A DNA stretch of 64,000 nucleotides, taken from the IMG/VR virus record IMGVR_UViG_3300037455_000245, positions 41,229-105,228 of that record; one strand, given 5' to 3'. The stretch is from a virus. Taxonomy: Duplodnaviria; Caudoviricetes. The position numbers were made by a program, and so were the translations under genes. The notes below the pieces were generated by a model that had not been told where the DNA came from, made no database searches, and saw nothing but the letters and a program-made list of their open reading frames with translations. This document shows positions 15,916 through 42,800 of this stretch, in pieces; the stretch's first letter is position 1; each line of letters opens with the position of its first letter.

Positions 15916-16509
15916 ATGTATAGTACAAAAACAGCAACAACAAGCAATACGGAGTTTACAAGCTCCTATATGCCAGTAGGCATCAATGAAAACATCACTC
16001 TGAAAGAAGTAAACGTCAACAAATCGCCTCAAGGTCTTGACTTTCTGGAGATAATTTTCCAGAACAGTGAGGGTCAAACAGCAACTATGACTGAATGGAA
16101 GAACGAGAAGAATATGTGGATTAAGACCGATGAAGATTTACAGCGTCGAGATAATCAGCAGTTCGGACGTATTCTGCAGGTTATAGATGCAATTAAAGGT
16201 GGTCATAATGATTTCGAAGGTAATTCGTTTATCGAGATGATTACTTGGGCTAAGACGTGTCTTAATGACGGTGATAACGATCCTGTGCGTCTTAAAGTAA
16301 TTTATGACAAAAAGGGTTATACTACCGTATCTAAGAATGGTGTATTTATCGAGTCTATGGGTGTTGCAGAGTCGCAGATTAAGCTTTGGAAGAACGATCT
16401 TCTGGAGCGTCCCGTACAGGCTGACGTTGAGAAGCCTATCGACCCGCTCGCTGGTAACAGTGCTCCGGTGACTGCAGACTCTACAGGTGCTGACGACCTA
16501 CCTTTCTAA
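15916..16509 (+). CDS. Putative single-stranded DNA-binding protein
   Basis: C-terminal acidic DDLPF tail; located between the AAA ATPase and primase genes. Confidence 0.75.
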   Translation: MYSTKTATTSNTEFTSSYMPVGINENITLKEVNVNKSPQGLDFLEIIFQNSEGQTATMTEWKNEKNMWIKTDEDLQRRDNQQFGRILQVIDAIKGGHNDFEGNSFIEMITWAKTCLNDGDNDPVRLKVIYDKKGYTTVSKNGVFIESMGVAESQIKLWKNDLLERPVQADVEKPIDPLAGNSAPVTADSTGADDLPF

Positions 16510-16914
16510 TAATATAAACGATAGTTAGAAAGAGTTTAACTATTTAGACGCCATAACTATAGTGTCTTTATAGAAATAGTCAGTGGTGCTGACAACCAAT
16601 AAGAAGTATTCCAGAGGTATGACGGAAAAAGACGTGGCTCGCAGAGCTGAGAAACGAAACGTAATGGCACTCGTGTTGGGTGAAATTCCCATCTATCTCG
16701 TATAAAGAATCTAGTATGAGAAGCTAGCTTATAAAAGATCAGTGGTGGAGGACTGGAGGTCTAATAGTGCGACGTGAGTATCGGCAGATAGAAATATCGG
16801 GGACGCAACACACTATGGCAGCCAGCCCCTAACAATTAAACAATTTGAGGGTGGGAGGAGGAGCCTGGTCAGTGGAATGCTTTTAAAAGAGCCAGGGAGT
16901 AGAATTGTTTAAAC

Positions 16915-17095
16915 GGGTTTTTGGTGTAATGGTTGCATAGGCGGCTGATCTTAATTAGATAATCGTTCCACGTAAGTCTAATAAACTGTGGGTACATGGA
17001 AACTGTACAAATGAACTAGGTTTAGCCTAGAGAGGGTAACGTGAAAGCTAATAAGATGTAAATGCAGTCGGACAGGTTCGAATCCTGAAAACCCA
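16915..17095 (+). ncRNA. tRNA-like RNA with a ~115-nt structured insertion replacing the anticodon loop
   Basis: Acceptor GGGTTTT/AAAACCC+A, D arm GTGT-AATGGTT-GCAT, T arm CAGG-TTCGAAT-CCTG. Stem CGGCTG(16942)/CAGTCG(17065) encloses further helices. Confidence 0.75.
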
Positions 17096-17111
17096 CACAA
17101 AGCTTAAGCTT

Positions 17112-18086
17112 ATGTATAGTACGAAAACAGCTATCACAATGAGTCTTAGAGACTTATTGGAGAAAGTGAGCGACTATGACATTTATAGCTATTATCTAGG
17201 CTCATTTAAGCCTGGAAAACTAATGAACAGTCCCTTGCGCCCAGACGATAAGATCCCCAGCTTTGCTATATTTCCTAGCAAGACTGGAGATCTACTGTTT
17301 AAGGATCATGGGACAGGAGCATCTGGTAATGCTCTAAAGTTCATAAAACTATACAGACGCATTGATACACGTGAAGAACTTGAGCGTGAGCTCTTGAAAA
17401 TCGTCAGGTGTATAAATCCTACACAGACAGCACAAAAGCCCGTTAGAAGGGCTGAAAATGCGTCTGAGACGCGTATTGGGATAGTGAGGCAACCATTTAC
17501 TGAAATAGATAAGCAGTATTGGAAGCAATTTCATATATCTATTGACACATTGCGTCGATTTAATGTATTTAGTATAAAATACTTTTTGTGCAACAATATT
17601 GTTAGAGGAGTGTATAAGGAAGATAATCCAATGTATGCTTATAAGGTGTTTGATAAATTTAAAATATATCGACCACTAGCAAGTAAGTATACAAAATGGA
17701 GAACTAACTTAACAGTACAACACGTACAAGGTCTGGAACAACTAAATCCAGATGGTGGAAATCTCCTCATTATTACTAAATCTTTAAAAGACGTAATGTG
17801 TTTATATGAAATGGGTTTTAATGCAATATCGTCGAGTAGCGAAACTACTTTCATACCCGATGATACGCTTCAATCTCTAAGGAAGAAGTGGAAGCACATC
17901 ATTATTCTATATGATAGGGATACTGCAGGAATGCAGAATGCTCGTCAGTATAGTAAGCAATATAGCTTAGATGCTATATTTGTTCATAAGAAGTTTAAGG
18001 CAAAGGACGTATCCGATGCTGTTAAAGGTAACGGATTCGTTGTTGTCAAAGAATGGTTAACTAAAACAGTAGAAAGATATGTGTGA
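17112..18086 (+). CDS. DNA primase (DnaG/TOPRIM type, crAss-like)
   Basis: N-terminal SPLRPDDKIPSF...FKDHG domain; TOPRIM IITKSLKDVM...ILYDRDTAG...KDVSD. Confidence 0.88.
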   Translation: MYSTKTAITMSLRDLLEKVSDYDIYSYYLGSFKPGKLMNSPLRPDDKIPSFAIFPSKTGDLLFKDHGTGASGNALKFIKLYRRIDTREELERELLKIVRCINPTQTAQKPVRRAENASETRIGIVRQPFTEIDKQYWKQFHISIDTLRRFNVFSIKYFLCNNIVRGVYKEDNPMYAYKVFDKFKIYRPLASKYTKWRTNLTVQHVQGLEQLNPDGGNLLIITKSLKDVMCLYEMGFNAISSSSETTFIPDDTLQSLRKKWKHIIILYDRDTAGMQNARQYSKQYSLDAIFVHKKFKAKDVSDAVKGNGFVVVKEWLTKTVERYV

Positions 18087-20556: not shown

Positions 20557-23500
20557 TTAATCTTCGTTTTCTTGATCATACCCCCATATTAAATCGTACA
20601 ATAGACTATATCTTTCGAACTTATCCAACTTCATCACCTGCGTTTCATTATATCTACGCTTTGCTGCAGGATCAATAAACTATTCGAAGATATTGTGGAA
20701 AGGTATTGTTTTCATGAAATTTCTAAAACCTTCCGTATATCCTTGATATGTACCGTTTTGTATAATTCCATCGTCTTCTTCAAATTCTGACTCTTCGTCA
20801 CTAAAAAAGTTTAAAGCCAGTCTATAAATACCGGAAACTATAGATTGGGAGGCATAGTTTCTTCCATATCCCAACGTTGACATAAATAAACTAGTACCCA
20901 TTCCAGATGTAAATGTTAATAATGCGTCACTCACGGACGTGGCAGCTGTTGCTGATTTTACGTTGTTTAATATATCTATGAGATTATATTTACTATTTGT
21001 TTCAAATTGGACAGCTCTAGCCCAATATGCAAGTGTTTGAAGCAATAGCCATTTAAGTCTATCGTCGTCTTTATCTGTACTGTCTGCACATGCCACAAGA
21101 AGGTTTGCTATAGGAGCAATTGCGAAGTTTATTAGCATGACCTCATAAAAAGTTTGTCTTATCTAATACGCGTTTGCTATCTAGTTATCATGTTCTTCCT
21201 AAGACTGACCTTCTTTTAAAGAGGCAAATTTAACTCCAAGTGGATTTAATACATCCCCTAAACCTGTACCAAAGAATTCGTTGTTTACGTTCTTTAACGA
21301 TTTACGATCTTTTCTATGTTTGATATTATAAACCAAACTTGTAGCTAAAGAAATTGTACCACATCCGGCTAAAAATACAGGAGAAAATCCGCCAAACGCA
21401 AGTCCAACAAACGCTCCTGCGCCAGCTGCAGCTAATGCGTTTGAAGCCCAAAGATTTCTACAATAGTTAAACAACGTTCTAAATTGACCTCCTTTATATT
21501 CTTCTGCATCAAAATCATATACACGTTTACCCCACGTCTGTTGTAGCATTAATGGTATATATTGTCTGTGAATAAGCACAAATGCTCCTAAAAAATTTCG
21601 TGTCATCAACGCCTTTTGCAATCTTGTTGCCATACCGTCGGCTTGTTCTGCATTTTTCATGGCTTTGTTTGACGCTGTATTTTTTATCTTTTCCCACGCC
21701 GCTTGATATTCTGGTTTTACGATAAGTTTTGTGTCGTTCGAGTTAACTTTAAAATTCCACGCTTCGGAATCTCCTTCAAATATATTATATGCGTTGACTT
21801 TTGAATTTTTAAACTCTTTCATCAACTCTTTATATTTTTCCTCGCCAAGTATAAGACGTTGTTCTTCTATCATATGTTTTGTCATAAACTAACCGTTTAC
21901 ATATCTATACGATAGAAGCGTAGCAACCATGATTGTAGCTTTGGAATAAATGTCTGCTGCGGACATTATACCGAAAGTGCTGTTTTTGTATATTGCCTGT
22001 AATATTCTATTTCTGTTTGAATGCTCAGATTTTTTTCCAGATTGGTCTGATAAATCCATAAGCTCCATCAACAGTATTAATTTGTTTTTAGTAAGTCTAT
22101 CTCCTATAAACCTAGCTCCTGCAAAGTTTGACCCAAATTCATTTAAAGTTATTAGGCCAGCATTAAACATGTCACTTTTGCTATATTTATATCCAACTAT
22201 ACCATTTATAACATGTGTAAACATTGTAGTAAAGAATCCAACCATTGCTACTTTCGGGTTCATTCCTAAGTTTCTTGCTGTGGTCATTCTTTTTAACAGC
22301 GATAAGATTTTTGTGAGATCTATTCCAAACAATCCAAAAGAGTCTCTTTGCATGTCATAGAGATCACGCTCTATTAATTTCCTTGCATAATTGAACGTGT
22401 TTGACTATTGATTGTTTCCTCCAGTAAGCTTTATTTTATCAGTAACTTTTCTAAATTTACCAAATCTATCGGAATTTTTAAACTTCTAATCCCGTATCAA
22501 ATCGAGTATTAATTCACAATCGTCACGTATAATAGACCGTTCTTTATATTGACAAGACATCATGTAATAATCTCTAGTTATTCCAACTATATCTTTTGAT
22601 ATTAATTCCGGATGCTCTAGCGGTTTTGTAAACGGTGTTGGTATTACATGAAATTCTCTTCCGTCTGGGTATACTCCAGATATAGACTGCGTTCTACCGA
22701 CAGATGATTCCTAATATGCAGTATTAATATCTGTATCATTGGGATCCTCGGAAAGACCTATTATTCTACCAAATCCAAATATCTTACTTAAGAAGTTTTT
22801 AAATCCTTTGTATGTAGATTTTCTATACAACCGTTCCATAGCAGTGCACTCCTGCTACGGCAATAAATAATCATCTGCAAATTCTCTGTTCTGCATTTGA
22901 TTTGCTTCATGAATAGTATTGAAAATTCCATTATACAACGCTTTTAGAGTTTCAGAACCACCGTGGCGTACTCCGTTCTCGTCCTTTTTGCCAAAAATCT
23001 TAGAGTAATTTTCTTCGTTGTCATACAACTCTCGTTTTGGAACATAAGACATATTGTAACTTTCGTCAAAGTTATGGTTTAACAAATCGGATTCTTGTTT
23101 ATCAATCCACGCATCGTTTGGCGAAATCTCCATAAAACTTTCGTCTACAGTCTCCATTCTCTACAACCAAGAATACGGAACAAATGTACCCTCTATATCA
23201 AAAAGATCGTCATCAAAAGTTATATATCCATAAGTGTTCCCTAGAATTATGTTCATAAGCTCGTTTTCTGTAGTCTCGTCATCAATATCTTCTATTTCAG
23301 ATAACTATCTCTGAGCTTCTTTTCTAGCCTCTTCCTTTGCTCGTTTTAATTGTTCTGTATCTACATATTTGATATATTTATCCCAAATCTCTTTAAACTT
23401 GGCTATTCTTGCAGCGTCTGTTCCTTGCGATTTATAACGTTCACTATACATCTTTCTGTCGAGCTCTATAAGCGCATTTAACAAAACTTGAGGTATACTA

Positions 23501-39800: not shown

Positions 39801-42800
39801 ATACGCAGCTTCTATTTGTTTCTCATACAAGACTTTATCCGTTTCTGGCTTTTTTATTCCACCAACGTATTCTATTACCTTCTTTATGTCCATATTATGT
39901 AACAGAAGGCTTGTTTTTAATATTTCGCGCTGGTGTATATGATACACCCTAGGATTCCCATCTCTGCCTTTATATTTACTAGATACTGATACTACATCGC
40001 CTATTGGCTTATATACACATGCATATGATGCATCTTCGTCTTCTAGTATAAGTGCTACTGTAAACGCGTCCTTGTTGTTCTTTGTATTCTTTGCCTGTAA
40101 AGATTGTGTTACTACATAATAAGATTTTACTTTATGTAACCACCCTTTTTGCGACAATTTTTTAGATAATTCTGCACCAGGTTTCAGCGGTTTTCCATTA
40201 AACTCTGTTATAGTTTTCCCGTCTACACTTAATATTATAGGAGTTTTTTGTTCGTTATATTTATAAAATAACGTTTGCCATATTAATTCTGGCGACGGCT
40301 CTCCGACAATATCTCCTAGATTTTCTTCATTGTCTATCTGTGTAGAGTTATTTATATGCACAGGAGCGTTTTCTGCTTCATCTATAAGATCAAATTCTTC
40401 TTTTATAGAATCAGATTCGTCTTCATTTAGTGGATCGCCGTCGTATTCAACATCACCAAATTCGTTCTCAGATAAAAACGACGTGTCGTAATCGTCCTAA
40501 ATATCATCTTCTATTGCATCTTCTGCAATTTCTTCATCTGTTCTCTGGATATCGTCTTCAAACGAAGGCTCAAAATTTTCAGAATCGTTCAAATCACTGT
40601 TGACGCCTGTATCTTCATACTAAATATCACTATCATACGGATTAGCGCCGTCGTCTTCTAAAGACCCCTCTATGGCGTTATCTATATTACTGGTATCTAT
40701 ATCATCTTCGTCTACGTTGGCAACTTCACCAGGCTCATCGTCAAGTTCGTCGTTTTCTGCCTTGTTGGTGTCGCCAGTATTTGTAGAACCTTGTTTTTTA
40801 CCGTCGGCTTCTGTGTTATCGTTTCCACTGTCGTCAGTACTCGTTTTGCCGGATCCTTGTTTTCCTGTTTCAACAGAACCGCCTCCGCTTAAAGAATCAA
40901 ATTCATCAAAAACGTCATCTAAATCCTCATCCTATTCTTCTTTTCCTTTGGCAGCGTTTTTACGTTTTTGTTGTTCCTCTTTTACATCTTGTTTCTTTCC
41001 ACCGTCGTGATAGAATTGTTTCCTTACCGCCTTTTCAGCGTCACTTATGTTGTCGAAAGTTTCCTCGCTTCTTACAATAGGTTCGTCTTCATCTGAGCTA
41101 TCCTAAACCTACTATTCTGGACCGCTTAAAAACTCCTACGGTTCTTCTATGTCTTGAAAACGTCTGTGTACTATTTTCTTTCTTCGTACAGACTCTTCTA
41201 TTTTTTTCTCGATGGCGGTCCAGGCAGCTTTTTTTGACAAATGCTGCATGTCCTCTAGGTCAGTGATCTCATCGAAACCTAAATGCGTATCGGATTCTCT
41301 TCTAGAATCTTTCTTAGCTACTACAGCACCATACTCGTTTACAATATCGTCCAAATATGTACCTGTAGCAGATTCTCCAAATATAGCCTATCTTAATATA
41401 TTCGGGTTTTCTGACAGCGACATGTAAATATTTGCAACTCTGGCCTATGCGTCCATTATTGCTCTATTTATAAAGTAATTCTCTAATGTTTTAGTATGTA
41501 TGTCGTCGTCATCCAATTCAAATACTCCGCCTAAGAATTTCTCAAAATCAGAATTCTTTCCTACAATGTCCTGTTCTACGCTACGGAGCTGCTCTAACTT
41601 CTTTTTATAGTTGTCGACCCACCCTTGTACTTTTGACGGATCTACGTCAAGTCCCGTTATTTGTCTTATTTTAGTAAGAGCTTGTGCTTGATCGGTAGCC
41701 CACGACATGTTGTCTTCGATAGCTTTACGCTTCTTAAGATTATGAAGCATTCTTAACTACTCCAGAGCAAACAATGCTTTTGTTTTCGGTGTTTTAGTGC
41801 GCTGGTATGCTTCATGAATAAGTCTGTCGCGTTCTGTCTCGTCGTTTTCAAATATATCTTCAAGATATGCAGTTATCCCTTCATCGAATGCAAGCGCTTT
41901 GTCTTTAACCAAATCTCTTATTGCCCAATGCCCAGAAAACTTTTTAGATTTGTTTTTTCCACGTCCGTTTTCGTTTAACATTCTCTCTTTAAACAAATCT
42001 TCAGATTCTTTTTCATAAATAGGCTTTAACAGTTCATCACGCTTTTTCTTTGCCTCATCGGTTTTTGCCTCAAATAGACGCTGCGCCTGCACTCTGTACT
42101 TTGGACCTTTTTTCTTGGTTCTCTGCTTTTTTATATCTTCATCAAGATTGTTTTGTAAAACATCTTTACCAATAAGTTCTATAAGCTCGTCAACAGTTTT
42201 TATGGTTTTGACGTAAGACTAAAATTCACGATTTGTGTATTTTGGGAAATCTTTTATATACTTATCATAATTGTTGGAAAATTTATCTATAGCCGCTGCT
42301 AATTTTGAATTATCTTTTACTAATTGTGATAATTCTTCTTGAGAAATACTTCCATCTAATATTTTGGTAAGGATATACTCCTAATATTGTTGTGTAGCGT
42401 TTATATCTTTCATTTGCTACAAAACCAACTCTCTAGTTTTATGATAGTCCATAAGCGCTGTAGCGCCATCACGAAGAAATTGTCTATATTTTTCGCTATC
42501 TTTGTTTATTCCCTTTTCTTCAAGATCTTTACTTACCTGTTCGTTGGAATAAAGCCCCCACACAGCTGTCATCAACTTTATATCGTCGTCAATGTATTCT
42601 TTCTTTACAAGACTGCGATTAGCCTGTTCTATTCTATCTTGGTATTGTTCATTGGTTTCGCCGTCTCTTTGTTTGCCTTTATCTTCACTAAGCATCTATT
42701 TTAGATCATTTAGTGAAGTAAATAAAGAACTCCAATCGGCTCCATGCTAAAACCTATCGTAGAACATGTCGATGTGTACATTGTCCTATAAAGCTTTTTC

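Follow-up and report, generated by a model that had tools for sequence, protein, structure and literature searches.

A tRNA-shaped element with a structured RNA cassette in place of its anticodon loop upstream of the primase gene of a crAss-like rumen phage

What is the role of an RNA that is shaped like a tRNA but carries, where the anticodon loop should be, a folded stretch of more than one hundred nucleotides? The question is raised by positions 16915–17095 of the window analysed here (the whole 64,000-nt stretch of viral DNA, positions 41,229 to 105,228 of the IMG/VR record IMGVR_UViG_3300037455_000245), for which an earlier note, made from the sequence alone, had proposed a novel tRNA-like class: a miniature tmRNA, a decoy or a processed precursor. 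The source record is the complete 105,228-bp genome of a crAss-like phage of the rumen. Its replication genes share about 73–76% DNA identity with the Suoliviridae/Oafivirinae phages cr272_1 and cr130_1, and the public sequencing runs that hold the phage best are bovine gut samples. The plus-strand genes near the element use the standard code; the late genes on the opposite strand require TAG as a sense codon, one frame of 2,423 codons containing 26 of them. The element itself lies within a 600-nt spacer that runs from the stop of an SSB-like ORF, a protein with no Pfam match, to the start of the primase gene.

The structural features that had been attributed to the element from its letters are all present where they had been placed, and their coordinates are collected in Table 1 together with those of the surrounding genes and repeats. 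The frame shares with canonical tRNAs a 7-bp acceptor stem, U8, a D arm with G18 and G19 and a T loop of the T-psi-C-R-A type. It lacks the anticodon arm of a tRNA (5-bp stem, 7-nt loop with U33 and anticodon), and it has neither a 5-bp T stem, nor a variable region of at least 4 nt, nor a single base at position 26. The insert of approximately 111–115 nt occupies the place of the anticodon loop and the central arm reaches 16 bp in total before it leads into a 100-nt structured module. With no anticodon loop and with abnormal connectors, the element in its present form cannot decode. Stacked on each other, the acceptor and T helices make 11 bp and not the usual 12, which might weaken recognition by tRNA enzymes. 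The D-arm region (16922–16938) has the same base as the phage's own tRNA-Gln(UUG) at 14 of 17 positions. Minimum free energy folding recovers the acceptor stem, the T arm, the long central arm and the three hairpins of the insert, at an energy that is unexceptional (z = -1.1).

Table 1 Features of the element, of the spacer around it and of related genes (window coordinates unless stated otherwise)
Feature	Position	Strand	Remarks
DnaB-like helicase		+	near the element
AAA_24 ATPase		+	near the element
SSB-like ORF, 197 aa	15916–16509	+	acidic DDLPF tail of the bacterial SSB kind
Further repeat copy	16486–16498		inside the end of the SSB-like ORF
Short repeat form	16579–16597		
Long repeat form	16737–16829		65-nt insert in the hairpin
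Further repeat copy	16867–16875		
Acceptor stem, 5' strand	16915–16921	+	7/7 Watson-Crick pairs with 17088–17094
U8, G9	16922–16923	+	
D stem	16924–16927 with 16935–16938	+	4 pairs, 2 of them G-U
D loop	16928–16934	+	contains GG
D stem-to-central stem connector	16939–16941	+	3 nt; one base (position 26) in tRNA
Central arm, 5' strand	16942–16958	+	6 bp, 5 bp, 1-nt bulge, 5 bp
Anticodon-type stem	16942–16947 with 17065–17070	+	6 bp, one G-U
Central arm extension 1	16948–16952 with 17053–17057	+	5 bp
Structured RNA module	16952–17054	+	two outer helices and three hairpins
Central arm extension 2	16954–16958 with 17048–17052	+	5 bp, after the 1-nt bulge
Module hairpins	16968–16991, 16992–17008, 17016–17030	+	
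One-sided internal loop	17058–17064	+	7 nt, on the 3' strand of the central arm
Central stem-to-T stem connector	17071–17072	+	2 nt, in the place of the variable region
T stem	17073–17076 with 17084–17087	+	4 bp only
T loop	17077–17083	+	canonical, 7 nt
Acceptor stem, 3' strand, and discriminator A17095	17088–17095	+	CCA not encoded
Trailer	17096–17111	+	16 nt up to the primase ATG (17112–17114)
Perfect 12-nt palindrome	17100–17111	+	composed of two half sites of the HindIII type; adjoins the primase ATG
Toprim primase	17112–18086	+	start codon at 17112
CUA tRNA-like gene	G000:C1 ~23045–23120	minus	outside the window

A strict scan for such frames, in which we required the T-loop consensus, a T stem of at least 4 bp, a fully paired acceptor stem (7/7) spanning no more than 460 nt, U8, and a 4-bp D stem with A14 and GG in its loop, yields three matches in the 105-kb genome (this element, tRNA-Gln and one other) compared with a mean of 0.01 per genome in 100 mononucleotide shuffles; on the strength of this difference we regard the frame at 16915–17095 as real. 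Standard tools make little of it. ARAGORN at default settings, also with its intron options, makes no call at the element, and Rfam returns no match at the gathering score for the window, none at E values up to 10 for 16400–17300 and, at E up to 1, tRNA pieces only in five relatives. The T-arm region (17071–17087) is the sole part touched by the Rfam tRNA and tmRNA models, the former (RF00005) reaching 11 bits on the T arm only, against a gathering cut-off of 29 bits. At relaxed thresholds ARAGORN offers a 'tmRNA' as well as a tRNA-Ile(gat) interrupted by a 113-nt intron, calls to which we give no weight because the same settings produce many doubtful ones in the relatives. The spacer has no blastn match among 50,697 phage records, and exact searches of viral contigs with the 5' and 3' tRNA-like halves returned only one chance match, inside a terminator. 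The suggestion of a new class has thus survived in part: the element is a real, non-ordinary tRNA-like RNA gene that ARAGORN does not call by default and that matches no catalogued RNA family, while the mini-tmRNA that had been one of its proposed identities is not upheld.

The position of the element is occupied far more consistently than its sequence. We collected 80 related loci via the primase protein, which together with the window make 81, and scored the slot upstream of the primase as filled where a T-loop consensus on a stem of at least 4 bp places the predicted tRNA-type 3' end 14–27 nt before the primase ATG. Such a T arm is found at 64 of the 81 loci, as against 90 of 1053 control windows drawn from the same spacers; in the window the 3' end of the element falls 16 nt before the ATG. 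The bodies attached to these T arms vary widely. Around ten loci have ordinary tRNAs (Leu-UAA, Trp, Lys, Thr), and others have frames of 90–180 nt in which the acceptor stem is perfect and the insert unrelated (L009, L010, L017, L038, L044, L063 and L071). In a sister family (L012, L022, L040, L034 and L028) the frame has a central stem of 6–7 bp without a standard anticodon loop; its four helices are kept and four pairs are changed on both sides, so that frames of this kind are under selection as RNA. At L003, L007, L018 and L059 a conserved hairpin motif replaces the T arm altogether, and this points to a positional function at an RNA end and not to decoding. What is conserved at the slot is a structured RNA end shortly before the primase message and not any particular decoder. 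Because no homologue of this particular frame was found, selection on this copy is suggested only indirectly, by the slot and by the sister families. The palindrome that abuts the primase ATG recurs directly before the ATG in relatives, in the same layout with other letters, and may be a translational or processing signal.

The contents of the central arm are a conserved module in its own right. Homologues of the module at 16952–17054 occur as stretches of 86–91% identity or more in rumen-type phage contigs; searches gave five stretches in viral contigs and seven in metagenome contigs, one of the latter by chance, and seven distinct sequences in all. Their alignment holds a five-helix structure of 24 pairs in which 98% of the cells are paired. 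Five pairs, distributed among all three hairpins, are changed on both sides, compared with none in six slid controls apart from one that gives a single such pair, and the covariation score is reached by 0 of 500 shuffles. The check for covariation that the earlier note had proposed therefore comes out in favour of the hairpins, whose pairing is held by compensatory changes; the two outer helices are invariant across the alignment and can give no covariation signal. A covariance model (R1), under which the window module scores 128 bits, found no diverged copies in 85 sources, and the module pattern is absent from prokaryotes, taken as one genome for each of 185,579 species. Being present at 4 of the 81 primase loci, the module is not essential to the clade. 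The six other distinct copies all lie in the same SSB–primase spacer and all outside tRNA-like frames; in sister phages the module stands alone between copies of a strand-specific, hairpin-type repeat motif. Folded, conserved and found outside tRNA frames in these six copies, it is cargo, not part of a tRNA. A short stem closes around it in both contexts, within the frame and free-standing, whereas the extra 5 bp formed by 16948–16952 with 17053–17057 are particular to this phage and have no counterpart in the relatives. No antisense targets of the conserved module loops were found in the phage genome within three mismatches.

One invariant stretch of the module (17034–17051) resembles the GG, GTAACG and CTAA segments (P1.1, L4 and J4/2) of theta ribozymes, a likeness that may be due to chance or to a tertiary motif common to both. 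A theta or other HDV-like ribozyme was sought on both genome strands with a descriptor-style scan, our own approximation of the published motif (P3-L3, catalytic C in J4/2), and no nested double pseudoknot was found; the module positions that would form theta L3 covary as an ordinary hairpin.

The repeat motif that borders the free-standing modules is also present in the window and in many of the loci from L003 to L064. It consists of a conserved 13-nt leader (of the GGTCAGTGGTGGA type), a variable hairpin with a covarying stem, and CCC(C); the short form contains the inverted repeat GTCAG-N5-CTGAC. Its strand bias is pronounced, TCAGTGGTGG occurring 42 times in the forward and never in the reverse orientation in 81 kb (expected 0.08). 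The last codons of the 197-aa ORF are the repeat core GGTGCTGAC, and the first repeat copy is thus coding sequence. Repeats flank RNA modules, and one fills the pre-primase slot in four relatives. Between the short and long forms of the window lies a spacer unit (16598–16736) with a T-arm-like hairpin at about 16676–16692 and other stems, which has the appearance of a further small structured RNA; it bears no relation to the module at 16952–17054. The repeat matches no Rfam family, and attempts to fold the GGTCAGTGGTGG-type repeat by hand as a self-cleaving ribozyme, whether HDV-like, hammerhead or of another kind, gave no fit. It may be an RNA-processing signal, a cassette boundary, or a set of DNA iterons of an origin.

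Assembled contigs of public runs include the element in an RNA library. In a bovine gut metatranscriptome (run X1) a single contig without differences covers 16470–17071 at a depth of 80. Depth in this run is 62–86 over the upstream ORF and 15 over the primase (17171–17500), a roughly five-fold fall at the element, and cover by the phage itself is missing from about 17072 to 17131 and resumes at about 17132. A DNA run (X2) has a flat depth of 13–20 and one contig that bridges 16804–17186. No joint that skips the insert occurs in four runs, all of them read as assembled contigs in which RNA ends and rare spliced forms are invisible. The form that bears the insert exists in the RNA library and abundance changes at the element, and no more than this is to be read from the data; the step in RNA depth could equally be a terminator or promoter effect.

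We favour, and give an even chance to, the reading that the element, akin to the t-elements, is a tRNA-shaped structure for RNA processing and scaffolding that does not decode and that has captured an RNA cassette. According to this reading the slot upstream of the primase in Suoliviridae-type crAss-like phages would be filled by a non-decoding tRNA-shaped RNA whose acceptor stem, T arm and D-arm elbow are the part recognised by the RNase P, the RNase Z and the CCA-adding enzyme of the host. The spacer from SSB to primase would be transcribed as one RNA, in which the element would guide cleavage to 16915 and to a point immediately behind 17095; the upstream non-coding RNA, which is abundant, would thereby be terminated, the primase mRNA set free and a stable RNA of about 181 nt released. 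In this particular phage the anticodon loop of the frame has been replaced by the 100-nt structured cassette, the frame thereby becoming a natural tRNA scaffold that would display the cassette at the end of its 16-bp arm. The frame, the conserved structure of the cassette, the conservation of the slot, the unspliced form in an RNA library and the step in depth are observed; the cutting by RNase P and RNase Z, the stability of the product and any activity of the cassette are what we infer.

The earlier note had linked the element to the reading of TAG, on the grounds that the genome needs a way to decode this codon. The requirement for TAG as a sense codon stands; the case for a role of the element in meeting it is weakened by the lack of any sign of splicing in the contigs and by a CUA gene elsewhere. 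Of ordinary tRNAs the window holds tRNA-Met only, to which the rest of the genome adds tRNA-Gln(UUG). There is, however, a separate tRNA-like gene (Table 1), missed by ARAGORN and by the Rfam tRNA model. Its D arm is Gln-like, its anticodon arm (5-bp stem, 7-nt loop) has U33 and reads CUA, its T loop is odd in having 6 nt, and ACCA is encoded at its end. The related phage L096 carries the gene too, its acceptor stem differing by one double change. It is likely that this candidate is the amber suppressor of the TAG-recoded phage; it is a far better candidate for the TAG reader than the element, which is probably not a suppressor. A genome scan for a canonical CUA anticodon arm combined with a standard T loop gave only a false match in a coding region. 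Two further tRNA-shaped genes, both with irregular anticodon regions, were seen outside the window: an 89-nt gene on the minus strand (G000:C1:11458–11546) that scores 37.8 bits with the Rfam tRNA model and has an odd central arm, and one on the plus strand (G000:C1:37471–37540) that passes the strict frame scan and is called by no tool. Elsewhere, some recoded crAss-like phages are without a detectable suppressor (PMC7886860), and some suppressors are maybe too divergent to detect (PMC7886860; bioRxiv 10.1101/2021.08.26.457843).

Against this background the element could be an intron-bearing tRNA, from which an insert of about 111–115 nt is removed by a protein-dependent or RNA-catalysed route to leave a working tRNA, possibly Gln-like; a cut removing 16951–17061 could leave a 7-nt loop with a CUA anticodon. 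The insert does sit where tRNA introns sit, the D arm does resemble that of the phage tRNA-Gln, the late genes do require TAG as sense and some recoded relatives have no suppressor that can be detected (PMC7886860); relaxed ARAGORN, too, models a tRNA with an intron, of 113 nt. The earlier note had judged the insert too short for a typical group I intron, and rightly so, 111–115 nt comparing with a core of about 200 nt or more; nor does it match any intron family in Rfam at E values up to 10. There is no bulge-helix-bulge, as the 7-nt loop on the 3' strand and the 1-nt bulge on the 5' strand are 5 bp apart, and even after splicing the T stem would be of 4 bp, the variable region of 2 nt, the connector of 3 nt and the anticodon stem of 6 bp. 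RNA contigs show the unspliced form only, the module lies outside tRNAs in all relatives, and the separate CUA gene is common to a relative. Taken together we consider splicing distinctly unlikely. It is possible, if still unlikely, that we are dealing with a dead gene: recombination would have put the RNA cassette into a tRNA-Gln-like gene and left a chimera that is functionless as a unit, even if cassette and T arm may still work separately. The lack of a homologue of the frame elsewhere, the sporadic occurrence of the cassette, the mosaic of shuffled RNA modules and repeats in the surrounding spacer and the several non-canonical features of the frame are all in keeping with this. Decay, however, is hard to square with a perfect acceptor stem and an intact D arm and T loop, with a helix around the cassette that is extended and not degraded, with a slot that holds tRNA-shaped frames across the family and with the high depth of the element in the RNA library. 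A rather unlikely further account makes the locus part of a modular small-RNA system of the Suoliviridae, in which swappable cassettes would be housed between strand-specific hairpin repeats or in a tRNA frame; in the frame they would be cut out, CCA-tailed and stabilised by host tRNA enzymes, and the chimeric RNA would act in trans during infection, for example as a decoy against tRNA-directed host defence or an RNA that binds the ribosome or an enzyme.

The reading as a miniature tmRNA, or as some other aminoacylated tRNA mimic that enters the ribosome with the short frame 16998–17030 as its tag, fares worst and strikes us as extremely improbable. Its attraction is the way in which the T arm follows the central helix via a short GAC-type junction, just as in the 3' domain of the phage's tmRNA, and ARAGORN at an 80% threshold proposes a tag. 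The tmRNA-like 3' junction that had been remarked upon is a genuine likeness in that the phage tmRNA has a short junction in its 3' domain as well, but it does not make the element a mini-tmRNA. The third acceptor pair is G16917-C17092, i.e. G3-C70, and the absence of the G3:U70 alanine determinant that the earlier note had pointed out is real; a D stem is present. The Rfam tmRNA model (RF00023), whose cut-off is 47 bits, scores the element at 5.8 bits in a match confined to the T arm, and ARAGORN -m gives nothing at default. The frame 16998–17030, which had been read as a tag frame, keeps its length in the homologues while its residues change wherever the stems covary, and its last two residues vary (LA, FA, FV, FT); its stop is a TAG in an invariant stem, a codon that is sense late in infection. 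Furthermore, the homologous modules are not attached to tRNA-like domains, and the phage already has a circularly permuted two-piece tmRNA outside the window (G000:C1:39850–40235), a default ARAGORN call with a 15-residue tag ending in EAA. This gene lies just upstream of tRNA-Gln(UUG).

The closest known parallels to a non-decoding processing element come from plant mitochondria, where non-canonical tRNA-like structures, the t-elements, can define mRNA ends via RNase P and RNase Z (Forner et al. 2007, PMC1920247). The phage element has in common with them a T arm of the GGTTCRANYCC type, an acceptor-type stem, a non-canonical cloverleaf and a place directly upstream of the start of an mRNA; it differs in its hosts, which are of the Bacteroidota type, in its full D arm and in its conserved 100-nt structured cargo. 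The tRNA-like 3'-end elements of the mascRNA type in MALAT1 and NEAT1 (PMC12941219) are, by contrast, eukaryotic and nuclear, have no cargo in an anticodon arm and are unrelated in sequence. tmRNA (RF00023) likewise joins an acceptor stem and T arm to a large insert that replaces the anticodon region; the element is about half its size and, unlike tmRNA, lacks G3:U70, a pseudoknot ring and a conserved tag and retains the D stem. In engineered tRNA scaffolds the anticodon stem bears a grafted structured RNA, and cellular tRNA enzymes process and stabilise the product. The phage element would be a natural counterpart, by an analogy of design that we draw from the architecture. The RNAC and RNAD of phage T4 are tRNA-like in shape. 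They may be likened to the element by their description as phage small RNAs that are linked to tRNA genes and whose role is unknown (PMC3014915). Theta ribozymes, minimal HDV-like ribozymes that adjoin phage tRNAs, mature the transcripts of tRNA regions in gut phages with recoded stop codons (PMC10879173); they and the element are both unusual RNA devices of recoded gut phages, the nested double pseudoknot of the former being the difference.

In full-text literature searches no account of tRNA-shaped RNAs with such inserts came up for crAss-like phages, and the gene is one that standard tools (ARAGORN and the Rfam models) miss. The finding also bears on efforts to trace the hidden suppressor tRNAs of recoded phages. 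Very little is known of RNA biology in the crAss-like phages, which are among the most abundant viruses of the gut. Should the chimeric RNA be stable, it would provide a natural precedent for the display of an RNA on a tRNA scaffold, as well as a new phage RNA fold of 100 nt. And if the frame is a processing signal, tRNA punctuation, which to our knowledge has otherwise been described in organelles and in a few long RNAs of eukaryotes, would shape the replication-gene transcripts of a bacterial virus.
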